A stretch of DNA of 33,742 nucleotides from a virus (taxonomy: Duplodnaviria > Caudoviricetes). Below the pieces are notes generated by a model that was not told where the DNA came from, did not search any database, and worked only from the letters and a program-made list of their open reading frames with translations. This document shows positions 2,997-32,601 of this stretch, one piece after another. A program made the position numbers and the translations under genes. Positions within the stretch are counted from its first letter, which is position 1, and each line of letters opens with the position of its first letter. The DNA lies in IMG/VR virus record IMGVR_UViG_3300031766_000033, positions 1 through 33,742 of that record. One strand, given 5' to 3'.

Positions 2997-4469
2997 ATGG
3001 CGATTTTCGACATATTCACTAAGAAAGTGAAGCCAGAGCCTAAAATATTCAAACGAGCTTACGCTGCTGCCAATCCTGGTCGTTTGTTTGCCGACTTTAA
3101 GTCATCTGAGCGTTCCGCTGACTCTGAATTAAGCCCTGTCCTGAAAGTTATACGCAGCCGTTCTAGGGATTTAGTACGCAATAACCAATATGCAAAACGC
3201 TATATGAACTTGCTTAAGACCAATGTGATTGGCGGTAAGGGATTTGGCTTGCAGGTTAAGGCGCTAGATACAGTTGGTAAGCTCGATGAGACAGGCAATT
3301 CTGCGGTAGAACAGGCATTTATGCAGTGGGGTAAGCTAGGAAATCCTACTGTAGACGGCAGAATGGCTTGGGCTGACGCTCAGAGGCTGTGTTTAGAGGC
3401 TTTGGCGCGTGATGGCGAGGTCTTTGTAGTAAAACATCGCGGAAACGGCTTTAAAGACTCATTTGCAATAGAATTCATTGAGTCTGATCAGGTTGATGAG
3501 ACCAAGAATGAAAAACTAGCCAATGGTAACGAAATTCGCATGGGCGTTGAGCTGAACAAGTTCAAGAAGCCAGTTGCGTACCATTTCCTTAGCTACCATC
3601 CAGGCGATTACGACTTTACCACGATGTCTGTTTCTAAGAAGACGATTCGTATTCCTGCGGACAAGGTAATTCATGTATTTATGCCTTTACGCTCTGGTCA
3701 GACGCGAGGCGAGCCTTGGATGTCGCCAGCAATGTCTGGACTTAAGCAGTTAAGCGCTTACATTGAGGCTTCATTGGTTGCTGCTCGTGTTGGCGCGAGT
3801 AAGATGGGATTCTTTACTAGCCCAGGCGGTGATGGGTTTATTGCTGACGACCTAGATGGTCAAGTGCCAATCATGGACGCAGAACCTGGCACGTTCCATC
3901 AACTGCCTACAGGCGTAGACTTTAAGACATTTGACCCGCAGAACCCAAACAATGAGTTTGAGAGCTTCCATAAGTCAGTACTAAAGTCGGTCGCATCTGC
4001 TTTAGGTATCTCTTATACCTCTCTCAGCAACGATTTAGAGGCTACTAGCTACTCTAGTATTCGCCAGGGCGCGTTAGAAGAGCGTGATTATTACCGTGAT
4101 ATCCAGCAGTTTATGATAGATCACTTCGTTCGGCCTGTGTTTGAAGGATGGCTAGAAAGCGCGATGGAGATCAATTCATTCGGTATCCCGCTGCGCCAAT
4201 ACGACAGATTCTCTAATTCTGCTGAGTTCAGGGGTAAGGGATGGTCTTGGATTGACCCTCTGAAAGAGATGAACGCCTCGGTAGTTGGTCTTAAGAGCGG
4301 AATACTCTCTATTCAGGACGTAGCAAGCCAGTATGGGAAAGATGCAGAAGAATTAATGGCTCAGATACAACGCGATAAGAATCTTGCTGATCAGTTTGGC
4401 ATTAAGTACGCATTAGAGCCTTACGGAGCGCAGTTCGTACCACAAGAACCGGATTTGACTGATGACTAA
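2997..4469 (+). CDS. Portal protein, lambda family
   Basis: RSRSRDLVRNN, RDGEVF, GVELNKFKKPVAYH, GQTRGEPW, YSSIRQGALE, WSWIDPLKE. Confidence 0.97.
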   Translation: MAIFDIFTKKVKPEPKIFKRAYAAANPGRLFADFKSSERSADSELSPVLKVIRSRSRDLVRNNQYAKRYMNLLKTNVIGGKGFGLQVKALDTVGKLDETGNSAVEQAFMQWGKLGNPTVDGRMAWADAQRLCLEALARDGEVFVVKHRGNGFKDSFAIEFIESDQVDETKNEKLANGNEIRMGVELNKFKKPVAYHFLSYHPGDYDFTTMSVSKKTIRIPADKVIHVFMPLRSGQTRGEPWMSPAMSGLKQLSAYIEASLVAARVGASKMGFFTSPGGDGFIADDLDGQVPIMDAEPGTFHQLPTGVDFKTFDPQNPNNEFESFHKSVLKSVASALGISYTSLSNDLEATSYSSIRQGALEERDYYRDIQQFMIDHFVRPVFEGWLESAMEINSFGIPLRQYDRFSNSAEFRGKGWSWIDPLKEMNASVVGLKSGILSIQDVASQYGKDAEELMAQIQRDKNLADQFGIKYALEPYGAQFVPQEPDLTDD

Positions 4470-6939
4470 GTATAAAGGCGTAGATATCAATACAAAGCCA
4501 ACTGACGGCATGGTATCTGCTGCTCGCAAGGCACTTGATTGGCGTAAAGAATACGGCAGGGGTGGTACTGCGGTAGGAGTTGCTAGAGCTAGAGACATAA
4601 TCAATGGTTCTAATCTTAGTATTAGTACTGTAAAGCGAATGTACTCGTTCTTTGCCAGGCATGAAGTAGACAAGAAAGCAGAAGGCTTTAACTCTGGTGA
4701 AGAAGGATTCCCTAGCGCAGGAAGAATTGCTTGGGGTCTCTGGGGTGGTGACGCAGGACAAACATGGTCTAAGCGCATCGTGGATAGGATCAACTCTATT
4801 GACGATCGTAGCTATGATATAATCAACGACATAGCTGAAGAGGATTCAGACATGACGGATTTAGTAAACGAGGTGTTGATTGACGACACCGAGGAAGAGA
4901 TCGAGCAACGCGCTGAACCAGACGCTTTAAATGTCGGCGACTTTGTGAGCTGGAATAGTTCAGGCGGTCGCGCTCGTGGACGCATTGTTAAAATTGAAAG
5001 AGACGGTGAAATTAATGTCCCTGACTCTGATTTCAGCCTTGAAGGCACTGAAGAAAACCCAGCGGCCTTGATTAGACTTTATGATGGAGAGGGCGAGGAG
5101 ACAGATCGCTCTGTCGGTCACAAGTTTTCTACGTTAACTAAAATCGACCCTATTCGCGGCAATTATGATGAAGATCGTAAGGGTGATGTAGAAGTTCAGC
5201 ATCGCGCCATGTCGCTAGATGCGTCTCCTATTGATGAAGAGAAGCGCACAGTTAAGATTGCTATCTCATCCGAAGAGCCTGTATCTAGGTCATTTGGTAA
5301 TGAGGTATTAGAACATTCAGCCGAAGCGATTGATTTATCATTCCTCGCTTCAGGCAGAGCGCCACTGTTGCTGGATCATGACCCAGAGAAACAGATAGGC
5401 GTAATAGAATCGGTAGACCTTGATGGCTCGGCTCGTAGACTGCGAGCGACAGTACGCTTTGGAAAAGGCGCACTTGCTAGAGAGGCGTTCGATGATGTGT
5501 TGGACGGTATCCGCGCTAATATCAGTGTTGGTTATTCGATCAGCAAGATGCAGAAAGATGCTAGGGATGGCGAAACGTATATCGCTAAATCCTGGCGACC
5601 AATGGAAGCAAGTTTGGTGTCTATTCCTGCCGATGTGACAGTTGGCGTTGGACGGTCGAGCGAGCAGCCAAAGAAACCCGAAATCGTAACTTATGTGGAG
5701 GACAGTAAAATGTCTGAAGTAGATATCGCGGCTGTAGAGGCTCAAGCCCGTCAATCAGCCAGTAAGAATGCAGCTCAAATCCTTGAGCTTGGTCAGCGTC
5801 ACGGTCAGAGCGAGCTTGCTCACAAGGCTATTGCTGAAGGTACATCAATCGAAGAGTTCCGTGGTTCGGTTCTTGAGAAGATCGGTAGCGAACGCGCTCT
5901 CGAAGCTCAAGAGATCGGATTGACTAAAGAGCAGACTAAGCGCTTCTCACTAGTCAAGGCTATCCACGCTCTTGCAAACCCAACTGATCGCCGCGCTCAA
6001 GAAGCTGCTGCGTTTGAGTTCGAGGCTTCACGCGCTGCTGCTGAGCAGTACGGTCGCTCAGCTCAAGGCATCATGCTCCCTGCGGAAGTAATGAAGAACT
6101 GGAAGCGTGACCTGAACTCTGCTGATGATTCAGCGATCTTCGGTGATGATTTCCGTGGCGGTGACTTCATCGACGTACTGCGTAACGCTTCAAGCGTAAT
6201 GCAAGCTGGCGCAACAATGCTGTCTGGGCTCTCTGGCGATGTCAAAATCCCTAAGAAGACTGCTGCTGCAACTGCTGCTTGGATTGCTACTGAAGGTGGC
6301 GCGGCTGCTGAGAGCGAAATGACAGTTGGTCAGGTCTCAATGACTCCTAAGACTCTTGGTGCGTTCACTGACGTTACTCGTCAGCTACTCATCCAAAGCT
6401 CTTTGGACGTTGAGGCTCTTATCCGTAACGACCTCACTTCTGCTATGGCTCTTACTATTGATAAGGCTGGCTTGGAAGGCGCAGGTACAAGCGGAGCGCC
6501 TACTGGTATCCTGAGTACTTCTGGTGTGAACACTGTCTCTGCATTCGCTGCTGCTAACCCAACTTTTGCGGAAGTTGTTGGCCTTGAGACAGCAATTGCA
6601 GAAGACAACGCTCTCATGGGTAACCTTGCTTACATCCTCCCTGCGGGTATGTACGGCGCTCTGAAGACTACTGAGAAGGCTTCTGGTACTGCTCAGTTCG
6701 TCATCGAGCCAGGTGGCACTATGAACGGCTACCGCGCAATCGTTTCTAACCAAGCGACTGCTGGTAACCTTTACTTCGGCAACTTCTCTGACCTCCTTAT
6801 TGGAATGTTCGGTGGACTAGATATAGTAGTAGACCCATATACAGCGTCTACAACTGGTACTATCCGAGTAGTTGCTCTGCAATCAGTAGACGTAGCAGTA
6901 CGTCACGCTGTGAGCTTCGCCTTCGGTAACGACGGCTAG
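4462..6939 (+). CDS. Fused head polyprotein: unknown N-domain + Tudor/SH3-like domain + prohead protease + HK97-fold major capsid protein
   Basis: Protease motifs LLLDHD, ISVGY and EASLVSIPAD (about 5240-5660). Capsid motifs FIDVLRNAS, AWIATEG, QLLIQSS, YFGNFSDL and DVAVRH (5710-6939). Confidence 0.93.
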   Translation: MTKYKGVDINTKPTDGMVSAARKALDWRKEYGRGGTAVGVARARDIINGSNLSISTVKRMYSFFARHEVDKKAEGFNSGEEGFPSAGRIAWGLWGGDAGQTWSKRIVDRINSIDDRSYDIINDIAEEDSDMTDLVNEVLIDDTEEEIEQRAEPDALNVGDFVSWNSSGGRARGRIVKIERDGEINVPDSDFSLEGTEENPAALIRLYDGEGEETDRSVGHKFSTLTKIDPIRGNYDEDRKGDVEVQHRAMSLDASPIDEEKRTVKIAISSEEPVSRSFGNEVLEHSAEAIDLSFLASGRAPLLLDHDPEKQIGVIESVDLDGSARRLRATVRFGKGALAREAFDDVLDGIRANISVGYSISKMQKDARDGETYIAKSWRPMEASLVSIPADVTVGVGRSSEQPKKPEIVTYVEDSKMSEVDIAAVEAQARQSASKNAAQILELGQRHGQSELAHKAIAEGTSIEEFRGSVLEKIGSERALEAQEIGLTKEQTKRFSLVKAIHALANPTDRRAQEAAAFEFEASRAAAEQYGRSAQGIMLPAEVMKNWKRDLNSADDSAIFGDDFRGGDFIDVLRNASSVMQAGATMLSGLSGDVKIPKKTAAATAAWIATEGGAAAESEMTVGQVSMTPKTLGAFTDVTRQLLIQSSLDVEALIRNDLTSAMALTIDKAGLEGAGTSGAPTGILSTSGVNTVSAFAAANPTFAEVVGLETAIAEDNALMGNLAYILPAGMYGALKTTEKASGTAQFVIEPGGTMNGYRAIVSNQATAGNLYFGNFSDLLIGMFGGLDIVVDPYTASTTGTIRVVALQSVDVAVRHAVSFAFGNDG
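4813..4823 (+). promoter_or_regulatory. Candidate internal extended -10 promoter (TATGaTATAAT)
   Basis: TRTGnTATAAT consensus, followed by GAGGA (4840-4844) and an in-frame ATG at 4852. Confidence 0.5.
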
Positions 6940-28324: not shown

Positions 28325-28436
28325 TTGGTTTCCATAAGCTGTTAAGTAAACGATAGAGCCTTAGACAGTTCTTACACATGGTGTCTAATGATGCTCTTCT
28401 CTCTGAGCAAGCTCGGCACTTTATCTGGTCGGTCAT
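28251..28436 (-). CDS. Small CxxC-CxxC protein
   Basis: CRAC...CKNC; the start overlaps the ERF stop (ATGA). Confidence 0.5.
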   Translation of the reverse strand: MTDQIKCRACSERRASLDTMCKNCLRLYRLLNSLWKPNENIYGSTGYDRLAHPTHWCRDSE

Positions 28437-29017
28437 TGTAAGTTCGCTATAATTTCACAGGCAGTATCGTAGTCTGTCACGCGAAGCTCAGTGAGGTTCT
28501 TGATGTTTTTCCACTTGAGGATTCGCTTTTCATCAATGCTTTTAGCTGCCAAAAGATTCTGGATTTTACCCACTTGTTCGGCGCTGATCGTAGGAGATGG
28601 CGACTCATGCGACACTTCGTCAGCGTCAGTGTCTTCCTGCGTACTTACTCCAGCAGCAGCCGCTAGGGCAAATTTGCGAACGTAAGTCAGCAGTGATCCG
28701 TATGCTTGTGGGTCATGCTTAGAAGATGGAACGCCAAATCGTGAGCGCATCCACTGACCGCTAGAGTGGATAAGCATAGTCTCTACGCCTACTTCTCCGT
28801 TAATAGAATAAGGGTGTTGGGTATAGCTGATGCCGTTCGCAGTGAGAGTTTCTTTAACCGCATCACGGATATCATCAAGGGTGGCGTAAGCGCCAGTTTT
28901 GCCAGTTGCCTTGTCAGCGAACCGACTATTGATGCCAGACATCTTAGCCTTTGGCATGACTGATTGAGCCTTGGCGAGTGCCGCTGCAAGTTCGTTTATT
29001 TGTTCTGATTGCTTCAT
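28433..29017 (-). CDS. erf: ERF family ssDNA-annealing recombinase
   Basis: INELAAALAKAQ, YATLDDI, LIHSSGQW, QAYGSLLTYVRKFAL, QEDTDA. AGGAGA RBS upstream of the ATG at 29017. Confidence 0.93.
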   Translation of the reverse strand: MKQSEQINELAAALAKAQSVMPKAKMSGINSRFADKATGKTGAYATLDDIRDAVKETLTANGISYTQHPYSINGEVGVETMLIHSSGQWMRSRFGVPSSKHDPQAYGSLLTYVRKFALAAAAGVSTQEDTDADEVSHESPSPTISAEQVGKIQNLLAAKSIDEKRILKWKNIKNLTELRVTDYDTACEIIANLQ

Positions 29018-29039
29018 AAGTAATCTCCTTGAGTAGACT

Positions 29040-29068
29040 AATCTACCTAATATGATTACCAACTGCAA
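29040..29068 (-). promoter_or_regulatory. Sigma70 promoter for the leftward early operon
   Basis: TTGCAG-17 nt-TAGATT on the minus strand, just upstream of the erf RBS. Confidence 0.65.
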
Positions 29069-29125
29069 GAAGTTTTTAGGAGGCAAAACTAATTATTTTT
29101 GTTTTGTTTTGTCCCTACTATAGAT

Positions 29126-29164
29126 AAAAAAAAGCCCTGAGCGTTTCACAACGTGTCAGGGCTT
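29126..29164 (-). terminator. Rho-independent terminator for a minus-strand RNA
   Basis: AAGCCCTGA (29132-29140) pairs with TCAGGGCTT (29156-29164), with an inner GCGTT/AACGT stem. A8 on + is U8 on -. Confidence 0.8.
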
Positions 29165-29191
29165 GCAAATCTAACTCAAGGGGACTACTAT
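29163..29191 (+). promoter_or_regulatory. Sigma70 promoter for the rightward RNA
   Basis: TTGCAA-17 nt-TACTAT; predicted start about 29198. Confidence 0.7.
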
Positions 29192-29194
29192 TGG

Positions 29195-29610
29195 CTTGTC
29201 GGTGGGTTAGCAGCCCTAAATTCTGACTTGACTAAGGAGAAGTAGAAACCCGACAAGGGATATTCTACACCATCCTGTAAGATCCTACCAAGTCCTATAC
29301 CGAACGTGTGGCAAAGCCTGACGTACTCTGGCTCATGTGGTAGCTGACCCTGAAATTAGCCGCAGAAATGTGAGAAGCAAGTGACCTAACAACCTGCGCT
29401 GACTCGCCCATGTCAACAGGTAACCGCAAACACACACAACCAGGTCGCGAGCTAGGCATTGAAATAACTTCCAGTTAAGTCTGGCGGGGGAGCGGTTCAC
29501 CACTGTGGATCGTTGCAATGAGTACCAAGTCTTCGGACTTTCCGTTTTGGAGCGCTAGGACACCTAATGCCGTGGGTGTGTTTGCGGGGGAAAATGGGCG
29601 CTTGTGCCTG
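29195..29610 (+). ncRNA. Putative large structured RNA (about 410 nt)
   Basis: Perfect 12-bp long-range helix (29424-29435 with 29576-29587), cUUCGg and GAAA tetraloop hairpins, many further stems with G-U pairs. No credible ORF. Confidence 0.7.
29262..29291 (-). promoter_or_regulatory. Promoter for the antisense RNA
   Basis: TTGGTA-18 nt-TAGAAT on the minus strand. Confidence 0.55.
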
Positions 29611-29626
29611 TAATTTGGAGATCAAA

Positions 29627-29803
29627 ATGGACGACCTATCAGAGAAGCCATGCCGCTGCGGCGAAGTCATGGGAGAAGTCATAGGCTTCAACCATCGTCA
29701 AACAGATGACACATATCAAATGTACCGAGTCTGTTGGTACTGTCCAGAGTGTCACGCCACTGAACAGGCGATTGGTAGAGAACGAGTTGTTGATACAAAA
29801 TGA
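29627..29803 (+). CDS. Small zinc-ribbon-like protein
   Basis: GGAG RBS at 29617-29620 and ATG at 29627; CRCG...WYCPEC. Confidence 0.7.
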   Translation: MDDLSEKPCRCGEVMGEVIGFNHRQTDDTYQMYRVCWYCPECHATEQAIGRERVVDTK

Positions 29804-29825
29804 TATAACAAGTAAACAAAATATG

Positions 29826-29857
29826 TTGACTCCTGTGTTTTTGGTAGGCAGTATTAT
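29826..29857 (+). promoter_or_regulatory. Possible promoter for the helicase operon
   Basis: TTGACT at 29826 preceded by an AT-rich tract. The -10 is either CAGTAT (17-nt spacer) or TATTAT (20-nt spacer); neither is ideal. Confidence 0.4.
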
Positions 29858-29877
29858 CCCAACCAAAGGAGAACGAC

Positions 29878-30258
29878 ATGACTTTAATTGACGCGATTGA
29901 CGAAAATCTGGACGACTTGGTAGACCCAAAGAACCGATGTGTAGAAGCAACGGACGCAGCAGCTAACGCGCTAGTCATTGCCTGGACTGAGGAAACCCCT
30001 TACGAATTGCAAGAGATGATGTTTTGCGACAGCTCAGAAGCTGACTGTCAGCAGTTCCATGTTGACATGGCAAAAGCATTCGCTGGCGAGATCACGCATG
30101 ATCAGTTCTTCATTAAGTACGAAAAGTTCTATGACATCGCTAAGCGCGAAATCATGGATGACCTAGATTCTAAAATCTGGAATAGGTACACAGACCTAAA
30201 CGACGTACCGCCACTAGATATGTATGACTACAACGGCGTTCGCAGGGAGGACTTCTAA
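29878..30258 (+). CDS. Hypothetical acidic protein
   Basis: AAAGGAG RBS; coupled to the next ORF. Confidence 0.7.
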   Translation: MTLIDAIDENLDDLVDPKNRCVEATDAAANALVIAWTEETPYELQEMMFCDSSEADCQQFHVDMAKAFAGEITHDQFFIKYEKFYDIAKREIMDDLDSKIWNRYTDLNDVPPLDMYDYNGVRREDF

Positions 30259-30494
30259 TGTGGATTTTAACGAGAAATGGTCAAAAGTTTGGTTATGCAA
30301 CAACTGATAAGGCCGCGATAGAAAAGTACCGTGGATGGTACATCGAAGACCATTATAAAGCCGAGGCTGCTCAAGTTCAGCTAAGGCTGTGGAATGCTTC
30401 AAAGACTACCATTCTACAGTCAGATGCAGAGCAGATAGCTCGTGACACGCTTGAAGAGGAAATCGGCGTAATGCAGATCAAGCAGCATGATTGA
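30258..30494 (+). CDS. Hypothetical protein
   Basis: GGAGG RBS and TAATG coupling. Confidence 0.65.
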   Translation: MWILTRNGQKFGYATTDKAAIEKYRGWYIEDHYKAEAAQVQLRLWNASKTTILQSDAEQIARDTLEEEIGVMQIKQHD

Positions 30495-31992: not shown

Positions 31993-32380
31993 GGTTCGCA
32001 AGACCCCTAATGGATGGACTGCTTGCTGTCCTGTTCATGGTGACAGAAATCCCTCGATGAGCATTACTGAGAAAGACGACGTTATCCTATGTCACTGTCA
32101 CGCCTGTGGCGCTAACGGCGTTGACGTAGTTGCTGCGGTTGGTTTGAAGCCAGAGGTCTTGTTTGATAAGCCGTTTGAACGAGAGGAAGACAAACACTGG
32201 CTGCTCAATAAAAAGGCTGATTGGGATGAGTGTATAATAGCTATGGCAGATGAGACGATTAAGCGAGGCGAGAGGATTGCTTACGGTGACTACAAAACTA
32301 TCAAAGAGTCTCTAGCCAGGCGAGAGCAAAGAAGGAAGATTGGCCTCCCGATAATTTTTAATATGGACATAATCCTATGA
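31955..32380 (+). CDS. Stand-alone primase-type CHC2 zinc-finger protein (no TOPRIM domain)
   Basis: WTACCPVHGDRNPSMSI...CHCHACG; only 141 aa. Confidence 0.85.
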   Translation: MLNISIVLERLDKVRKTPNGWTACCPVHGDRNPSMSITEKDDVILCHCHACGANGVDVVAAVGLKPEVLFDKPFEREEDKHWLLNKKADWDECIIAMADETIKRGERIAYGDYKTIKESLARREQRRKIGLPIIFNMDIIL

Positions 32381-32601
32381 GTCTTGCAGATATAGATAAA
32401 AACACAGTCATCCTTAGCCGCACTCCCTACAAAAGCGAAATAACCGAAGCGAGTAAGACTGAGCTGCAAGCAATCATCGATGCAGACATTGCTCGGTTTC
32501 TCAAAGCTGGCGGTAAGATACAGAAGATAGATTATCAGCTAACTAATATGAAGCAGAAGGAAGGGCGTTCGACTTTGGACTTCAGGAATAAGTTCTTGTA
32601 G
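32377..32601 (+). CDS. SutA RNA-polymerase-binding-domain-like protein
   Basis: IDADIARFLKAGGKIQKI resembles the SutA FLxxGGKVQxI motif. Confidence 0.55.
   Translation: MSLADIDKNTVILSRTPYKSEITEASKTELQAIIDADIARFLKAGGKIQKIDYQLTNMKQKEGRSTLDFRNKFL

Follow-up and report, generated by a model that had tools for sequence, protein, structure and literature searches.

A predicted antisense RNA gene facing the 5′ end of a large structured RNA in uncultured marine phages

Introduction

In ColE1-type systems the variable loops of stem-loops set specificity, and RNA I of ColE1 folds as three tandem stem-loops. The phage RNAs sar and OOP are small and terminator-ended, arise from a promoter inside the transcription unit that they oppose and have protein-coding messenger RNAs (mRNAs) as targets (ant, cII); a further class, the trans-acting small RNAs, combines an anti-Shine–Dalgarno (anti-SD) seed with a Rho-independent terminator. 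Here we describe a locus that resembles each of these in part. The sequence analysed, hereafter the window, is the whole IMG/VR virus record IMGVR_UViG_3300031766_000033 (33,742 bases, rated complete by CheckV), and the balance of evidence moderately favours reading its minus strand from 29255 to 29126 as a small RNA gene, the product of which would be a non-coding countertranscript, about 130 nucleotides (nt) long, of the rightward early RNA. As judged from sequence comparison, this antisense gene is probably conserved in a family of uncultured marine phages and probably serves as a switch on early gene expression.

RNA I of ColE1 binds the 5′ end of RNA II and alters its folding (PMC5415839), and the same source lists P22 sar and lambda OOP among phage cis-antisense RNAs and pIP501 RNAIII as a plasmid antisense RNA of the attenuation type. 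In the RnaG/icsA system of Shigella, promoters are convergent and the antisense RNA pairs with the 5′ part of the nascent sense RNA (PMC2879508). The promoters pR and pL of coliphage 186 are likewise close and convergent, and interfere about 6-fold, mainly by the ‘sitting duck’ mechanism (PMC6593788).

Comparison with described systems

Like RNA I opposite RNA II, the predicted small RNA is a short cis countertranscript that starts within the 5′ part of a long target, itself structured and non-coding, runs against it and stops close to the promoter of that target (PMC5415839). This layout, with predicted starts at 29198 on the plus strand and 29254/5 on the minus strand and an overlap of 57 nt, is conserved in 32 of 32 relatives, and the stem-loops here also carry variable loops. 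It departs from ColE1 in that the overlap takes up just 57 of the ~130 nt, the antisense RNA extending ~70 nt beyond the start of its target; in its fold, which is a three-way junction with two hairpins; and in that no priming function, origin or Rom is known and no sequence or Rfam similarity was found. With 186 (pR/pL) and P2 the locus shares facing sigma-70 promoters that lie tens of base pairs (bp) apart, 57 bp here, at the head of an early region, but the leftward transcript of 186 encodes lysogeny genes (PMC6593788), whereas the one predicted here stops after ~130 nt and is non-coding. The leftward transcript of a 186/P2-type switch carries an immunity repressor and an integrase; in the window a terminator follows after ~130 nt, and no open reading frame (ORF) of at least 30 amino acids (aa) is present on the minus strand between 29126 and 29255.

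The likeness to sar and OOP is that of a small, terminator-ended RNA predicted to arise from a promoter within the opposed unit. Unlike theirs, the target here is the 5′ end of a structured RNA of ~420 nt, and neither sar nor OOP is matched in Rfam. Convergent promoters and an antisense RNA directed against the 5′ part of the sense RNA are also common to RnaG/icsA and pIP501 RNAIII (PMC2879508 and PMC5415839); systems of the RnaG/pIP501/pT181 type need an attenuator terminator in the sense RNA, and none was found in 29198–29616. The unpaired, C/U-rich segment that is predicted before the long-U-tail terminator, and which is complementary to a ribosome-binding site, recalls the anti-SD trans-acting small RNAs, except that the small RNA here is also perfectly antisense in cis.

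The locus is not a member of the ColE1, sar/OOP or 186 families, given the lack of an Rfam match, the non-coding leftward transcript and the lack of an attenuator in the sense RNA. The idea of a countertranscript is old; the present combination appears to be undescribed as far as the literature searched and Rfam show. What seems new is the 5′–5′ overlap with a large, uncatalogued structured RNA, together with a predicted second target in the opposite operon and natural variants of the cassette.

Two facing promoters

The promoter of the small RNA (P_as) and the rightward early promoter (P_R) face each other across the 57 bp between their predicted starts, which were set at the usual distance of 7 nt from the −10 box. 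An inverted repeat, GTCGG/CCGAC, bounds the overlap, so that GUCGG forms the first letters of both predicted RNAs. In a consensus scan P_as matches at 9 of 12 positions; P_R, at 8 of 12, fell below the cut-off of that scan and was not listed. Every position on both strands was then scored with a sigma-70 weight matrix, the frequencies of which are approximate and may differ from the promoter preferences of the host. By this measure the two highest scores on either strand of the 570-nt region in the window belong to P_R (10.3 bits) and P_as (10.1 bits), and scores of at least 9 bits occur at only 0.26% of the 34,752 positions scored.

All 32 relatives possess P_R, always with a spacer of 17–18 nt and a −10 box of the form TAnnnT. 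On the minus strand P_as takes first place in 30 of them and second place in the remaining two (L031 and L042; L-numbers denote individual relatives), and with both strands taken together it is never placed lower than fourth in the 32. Its letters are less constant. Lineages carry TTGGTA (as in the window), TTGGTT or TTGGCT-18-TAGAAT, or else TTGTGA-18-TATACT, TTGCAG-16-TAGAAT or TTGCGT-17-GATAAT; still others have TTGTCT-17-TAAAAT (L098, 13.8 bits), TTGTCT-18-TGnTAGAAT (L099, 13.6 bits), TTGATT-16-TAAACT (L135, 12.9 bits) or an extended −10, TGnTACTAT (L006). The hexamers therefore turn over among lineages and the form, spacing and place of the promoter are retained, which is what a real promoter predicts: letters change and promoter quality is kept.

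A terminator closing the predicted small unit

The sequence-only reading of the window had proposed both promoters, a minus-strand terminator and a pair of complementary junction arms, and each of these is present in the sequence where it was placed. The terminator, intrinsic and canonical in form, was missed by a scan of 28400–30300, because that scan passes over loops longer than 8 nt. Together with the two promoters it recurs at the homologous place in 32 of 32 relatives. In the relatives, 31 of 31 aligned units end with a GC-rich stem followed by a T-run on the minus strand, in several versions that differ in stem and loop, and the plus strand is without a T-run after the stem. Stem changes in L002 and L003 appear as G-U pairs when the minus strand is read as RNA, and as C-A mismatches when the plus strand is.

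The terminator always lies directly upstream of the −35 box of P_R, and its distance to erf, the first gene of the leftward operon, ranges from 54 to 581 nt. A promoter like P_L, which precedes erf in the window, is retained in 31 of 31 erf-bearing relatives, its −10 box ending 22–28 nt before the erf ATG at any distance between terminator and erf. Since the terminator stays with P_R and erf has a promoter of its own, the terminator closes a separate small transcription unit and is not an attenuator in an erf leader. The unit has the sequence hallmarks of a small RNA gene (a promoter of its own, no coding capacity, and a GC-rich hairpin with a U tract) and is conserved in relatives, homologous units of 105–139 nt being found in 34 representatives. 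The features of the locus are collected in Table 1.

In L026, L027, L033, L037, L042, L047, L091, L097 and L101, insertions of 130–500 nt lie between the terminator and P_L. They hold direct repeats of ~12–14 nt, iteron-like by eye, and separate erf from the terminator in some relatives.

Table 1. Coordinates of observed and predicted features around the divergent early region of the window
Feature	Position	Strand	Remarks
Predicted non-coding antisense RNA, ~130 nt	29126..29255	−	ends inferred from promoter and terminator
P_as −35 hexamer, TTGGTA	29286..29291	−	from sequence and consensus scan; TTGnnn at the homologous place in relatives, letters lineage-specific
P_as −10 hexamer, TAGAAT	29262..29267	−	18-nt spacer; predicted start ~29254/5
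Terminator hairpin	29134..29164	−	−18.1 kcal/mol, z −4.32; 0 of 200 shuffles as good
U8 tract of terminator (A8 on plus strand)	29126..29133	−	T-run 3′ of the stem on the minus strand only
Start-to-start overlap, 57 bp, bounded by GTCGG/CCGAC	29198..29254	both	can fold as a three-way junction (P1, P2, P3)
Linker of antisense RNA, predicted single-stranded, C/U-rich	29165..29197	−	complementary to the erf ribosome-binding site
P_R, rightward early promoter	29163..29191	+	TTGCAA 29163–68, 17-nt spacer, TACTAT 29186–91; predicted start ~29198
Large structured RNA, ~420 nt, followed by 58-aa zinc-ribbon-like ORF	29198..29616	+	conserved with compensatory changes; no Rfam match
P_L, erf promoter	29040..29068	−	TTGCAG 29068–63, 17-nt spacer, TAGATT 29045–40; downstream of the minus-strand terminator
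erf translation start region	29015..29034	−	SD AAGGAG 29030–29025, ATG 29017–29015; predicted trans target of the linker
erf (single-stranded DNA-annealing protein), first leftward gene	28433..29017	−	PHROG phrog_155, 1.2e-33; Pfam ERF, 3.8e-18
First rightward ORF, 58 aa, CxC...CxxC motifs	29627..29803	+	conserved; no Pfam or PHROG match

The overlap domain

On either strand the isolated 57-nt overlap (29198–29254) is predicted to adopt a three-way junction, at −13.9 and −11.2 kcal/mol. In the sequence, CTTGTCGG at 29195–29202 is complementary to CCGACAAG at 29250–29257. A competing 5′ hairpin on the plus strand (29198–29202 with 29223–29227) is kept in 32 of 32 relatives, with G-U in 10. When junction and terminator are laid over the minus-strand alignment, 92.2% of cells are paired, and changes on both sides occur at five pairs against 1.0 in shuffles, none of 500 shuffles reaching five; this covariation lies mostly in P3 and P2. 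The minimum-energy fold of the minus RNA is the three-way junction in the divergent lineages L098, L099 and L135, and the plus strand of L098 does not form it. The junction is only modestly supported, and in divergent lineages it appears to fit the minus RNA better.

Wobble pairs specific to one strand are found on either side. In L045, L098 and L135 the middle pair of P3 reads U-G in the minus RNA but C-A in the plus RNA, and the L026 clade has one wobble and one mismatch on each strand at this place. The fourth pair of P2 (29207/29213) is a plus-strand-only wobble, U-G, in 28 of 32 relatives, and pair 29201/29224 of the 5′ hairpin is a wobble on that strand only (G-U) in 10 of 32. Both strands consequently look constrained as RNA, which fits a sense/antisense pair, on the basis of a few positions. 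A local asymmetry in folding energy, with the minus strand better over 29205–29420 and the plus strand over 29445–29640, was set aside, being confounded by base composition.

Conservation within the unit is lowest in the loop and upper stem of P3 (~29229–29244) and in the loop of P2 (29209–29211). Conserved promoters and terminator combined with variable loops, the very pattern which the sequence-only reading had named as a check on its proposal, are best read as a countertranscript that converges on the large RNA and covers its 5′ end. Two relatives, L005 and L006, are ~86–94% identical to the window in the aligned flanks, yet carry another overlap cassette in place of roughly 29203–29303; it is shorter and has the same geometry, with a GUCGGC...GCCGAC hairpin and a facing extended −10 promoter. 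The 5′ domain and P_as, as these sequences have it, behave as a swappable module. L034, L048 and L085 likewise belong to the relatives with such flanks and a different, shorter cassette.

The large rightward RNA

The RNA opposed by the small RNA is strongly conserved and contains an invariant 33-nt block (~29305–29337) in all relatives. One of its helices, 29424–29430/29581–29587, shows compensatory changes, with up to five pair types at one position, and crosses an invariant helix, 29323–29328/29520–29525; from this crossing a pseudoknot is likely in the predicted structure. Another long-range helix, 29249–29259/29579–29588, proposed by RNAalifold, was rejected, as it has no covariation and fails in divergent members, and the competing 29424–29430/29581–29587 has compensatory changes. 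In most relatives the large RNA runs, in the manner of a leader, into the 58-aa ORF or another small ORF with an SD of its own; some have an unrelated 74-aa ORF in place of the 58-aa one, and no small ORF follows the large RNA in L043/L077. The terminator scan of 28400–30300 found no terminator-like site on the plus strand within 29198–29616, and on inspection no T-run was seen after a plus-strand hairpin in 29255–29626.

The linker and the start of erf

A segment that could pair with the ribosome-binding site of erf lies in the part of the small RNA that does not overlap the large RNA, and formed no part of the sequence-only reading. This linker is the complement of the P_R spacer and −10 box, and the inverted repeat on which the pairing is founded (29019–29034 with 29174–29189) spans 16 nt at 88%. 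When RNAduplex was used to pair the linker with the starts of 46 genes, on targets of 40 nt, erf came first at −26.4 kcal/mol and the runner-up reached −20.6 (mean −11.9, sd 4.3). An AAGGRG motif is found in the P_R spacer in most lineages, L098 and L099 being without it, and for linkers of the window type and of L040 the cognate erf leader is the best partner. That the linker always pairs best with the erf leader of its own clade was considered and rejected, as it holds in two linker types and fails in two. The anti-SD pairing with erf is at present a weak lead from sequence complementarity, and not a result.

In the minimum-energy fold of the full small RNA, 29166–29197 of the linker pairs with the P2 region (29204–29216, minus strand), a modelled fold which may represent a second conformation, with the anti-SD segment concealed. 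Inverted repeats GTAGAC/GTCTAC lie over the spacer, −10 box and start of P_L (29030–29046 in the window), and between terminator and erf in L030/L031/L036/L050; by their arrangement they look like operators for a DNA-binding regulator.

Relatives and transcript contigs

The relatives, from marine, uncultured phages, were drawn from IMG/VR and from metagenome contigs. The Erf protein found 23 loci in IMG/VR, seven of which have the intergenic region in common; an exact 25-mer of the conserved core found 29 there, a word from the 5′ domain 23 (one of them new) and a 17-mer 36 (seven new), and a 21-mer found 28 loci among metagenome contigs. Removal of duplicates and truncated copies left 32 distinct sequences of 570 nt, and the new 17-mer contigs were analysed apart. 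Six of these seven contain the module. The remaining one, L114, matched by chance within coding sequence that is GC-rich and unrelated, and lacks every feature of the module. The exact 21-mer has no match (0 loci) among GTDB species genomes, which thus yield no prophage copy and no clue to the host, and blastn of 28900–29900 against 50,697 phage records gave no match. Pseudoalteromonas phage Pq0, whose Erf is 44.7% identical to that of this phage, and Roseobacter phage CRP-811, whose TerL is 56.6% identical, each have a divergent intergenic region of only ~140 nt, without the module. Rfam gave no match to the whole window at gathering scores; at E values up to 10, 28950–29900 gave only six sub-threshold matches, to unrelated families, with no RNAI, sar or OOP among them.

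Among 19 public runs listed, eight were examined. All contigs have a depth of 2–10 and are unstranded, and so carry no information on strand, starts or levels; the contigs of X1 match those of X2 exactly, as do those of X5 and X6, and each pair appears to be one data set deposited twice. The interval 29029–29216 is uncovered by contigs of RNA-labelled runs, which proves nothing. In two metatranscriptome runs, each from a different study, contigs start at 29263 and 29264 with no loose ends, and a contig from a run of unknown type reads through this place. At most this hints weakly that the large RNA has a processed 5′ end ~9 nt past the sense/antisense overlap; an assembly break at a variable region could also account for it.

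Genome context

The genome is siphovirus-like by Pfam searches of its 45 ORFs, with a lambda-type terminase and portal, a capsid–protease fusion, a tape measure and a lysozyme. No integrase, repressor, DNA polymerase or replication initiator was recognised by Pfam among these ORFs, and the only replication-type matches are a helicase and a primase zinc finger; a Rom-like gene was likewise not recognised. One non-coding region of 610 nt separates two diverging early operons. The leftward operon comprises erf (ATG 29017), a YqaJ-type exonuclease and a NinG-like protein, and the rightward one the 58-aa zinc-ribbon-like ORF (ATG 29627), an SF2 helicase, the primase zinc finger and a protein with a SutA RNA polymerase-binding domain. 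The last of these, a 74-aa early protein at 32377–32601 on the plus strand (Pfam PF20661, E 4.8e-08), may on this match be a phage-encoded modulator of host RNA polymerase. In the structural region, a single 825-aa ORF (4462–6939, plus strand) joins a prohead protease (Peptidase_S78), a Hva1_TUDOR-like segment and a major capsid domain.

Alternative readings

Several observations weigh against a small RNA that is transcribed, folded and targeted as proposed. The −10 region of P_as can in the window clade be read in part as an arm of a plus-strand helix, so that some of its conservation could stem from the needs of the large RNA, and the promoter scores depend on the approximate matrix described above and on a host whose preferences may differ. 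The three-way junction that the sequence-only reading had drawn over the overlap stands as a fold of the isolated 57-mer on both strands, but its energy is no better than that of shuffles (z −1.14 and −0.19) and its closing stem, being invariant, is uninformative; moreover, the full 130-nt RNA of the window has another minimum-energy fold, with the linker paired to the P2 region. The erf site is the top non-self partner of the linker among 6742 genome windows, but with a lead of just 0.7 kcal/mol, and the linkers of the L030 type and of L052/L086 pair better with the erf leaders of other clades. Public RNA runs, finally, gave only low-depth contigs without strand information.

The most sceptical alternative is that no minus-strand RNA is made, the promoter-like hexamers being a side effect of constraint on the large RNA and the hairpin with its A-tract a DNA- or protein-binding element of P_R. 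The pairing of the P_as −10 letters in a plus-strand helix of the window clade would agree with this, as would the confounding of the local folding asymmetry by base composition, but eight differing hexamer pairs keep promoter form and spacing at one place, even in unrelated surroundings, a GC-rich stem of lineage-specific sequence invariably has its T-run on the minus-strand side, and the chance word match in L114 shows none of the features; we regard it as highly unlikely. Rather less improbable, though still unlikely, is an effect at the level of DNA, in which polymerases from P_as and P_R collide or dislodge each other, the short RNA is a by-product and the terminator shields P_L and erf. 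The starts are indeed only 57 bp apart, the terminator does sit between P_as and an independent P_L, and closely spaced convergent promoters interfere strongly in coliphage 186, about 6-fold (PMC6593788). However, conservation of the transcribed 57 nt and of the linker goes far past the needs of a spacer, the loops vary and the stems stay, with minus-strand-specific wobbles in P3, and the SD-like motif kept in the P_R spacer of most lineages is sensible only for a minus RNA.

A role in trans, in which the linker blocks the erf ribosome-binding site and the overlap with the rightward RNA is merely positional, is about as doubtful as the DNA-level effect. It draws on the inverted repeat 29019–29034/29174–29189, on the rank of erf as best of 46 gene starts (−26.4 vs −20.6) and top non-self of 6742 windows, on the AAGGRG-like letters in the P_R spacer of most lineages and on the preference of window-type and L040 linkers for their own erf leaders; it is weakened by the genome-wide lead of only 0.7 kcal/mol, by the L030-type and L052/L086 linkers that prefer the leaders of other clades, by the lack of the motif in L098/L099, and by the fact that any C/U-rich stretch pairs with any strong SD. 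The sequence-only reading had gone further and suggested a ColE1-style replication or immunity switch, for which no support was found: Rfam has no RNAI match here and nothing shows that the large RNA primes replication. Its antisense layout did hold, in that the small RNA is convergent over the 5′ end of the large one, though with an overlap of 57 of ~130 nt and not over the whole RNA. In a strictly ColE1-like scheme the ~420-nt RNA would serve as pre-primer of replication or as the transcript of an origin, with the small RNA as an inhibitor setting copy number and incompatibility. The layout, in which a countertranscript opposes the 5′ end of a long RNA that is structured and non-coding, the precedent of RNA I binding the RNA II 5′ end and changing its folding (PMC5415839), the Pfam result of no initiator or polymerase, only a helicase and primase zinc finger, in 45 ORFs, the large RNA of L043/L077 that stands without a following small ORF, and the variable loops with a cassette swapped in one relative would all agree with it. 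Yet nothing points to an origin at this locus, a Rom-like gene was not recognised, the overlap is short, and in most relatives the large RNA leads directly, as a leader would, into an ORF that has an SD of its own; this scheme seems the least probable of the four.

Proposed action and significance

If the reading as a countertranscript gene is right, the small RNA would be made from P_as and end at the U8 tract, and its 5′ 57 nt would fold as the three-way junction, the two loops of which would start pairing with the 5′ end of the large RNA. Pairing would alter the folding, stability or processing of the large rightward RNA, and polymerases from P_as and P_R would also interfere with each other. 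The C/U-rich linker may in addition pair with the SD-to-AUG region of erf mRNA and so damp the leftward recombination operon. The net effect would be that one small RNA tunes or times both early operons, with the loop sequences setting the phage strain acted upon. A much bolder extension, which we consider a long shot, is an RNA-only circuit in repressor-less marine phages: a countertranscript folded as a three-way junction with hypervariable loops would give strain-specific, heteroimmunity-like control of a ~420-nt pseudoknotted RNA that licenses or primes replication, the linker would restrain the recombination operon, and the wholesale exchange of the cassette between phages ~90% identical in their flanks would record an escape from cross-inhibition.

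The small RNA would offer a handle on the adjacent uncatalogued large RNA, as refolding, cleavage or silencing of the latter could be observed directly. Natural variants of specificity are at hand in the variable loops and in the swapped cassette, with which it could be tested whether a countertranscript brings about exclusion at the level of strains, as in plasmid incompatibility. If the RNA is made, it would represent a compact switch of RNA and promoters alone, placed where both early operons meet, in widespread, uncultured marine phages without a recognised repressor.

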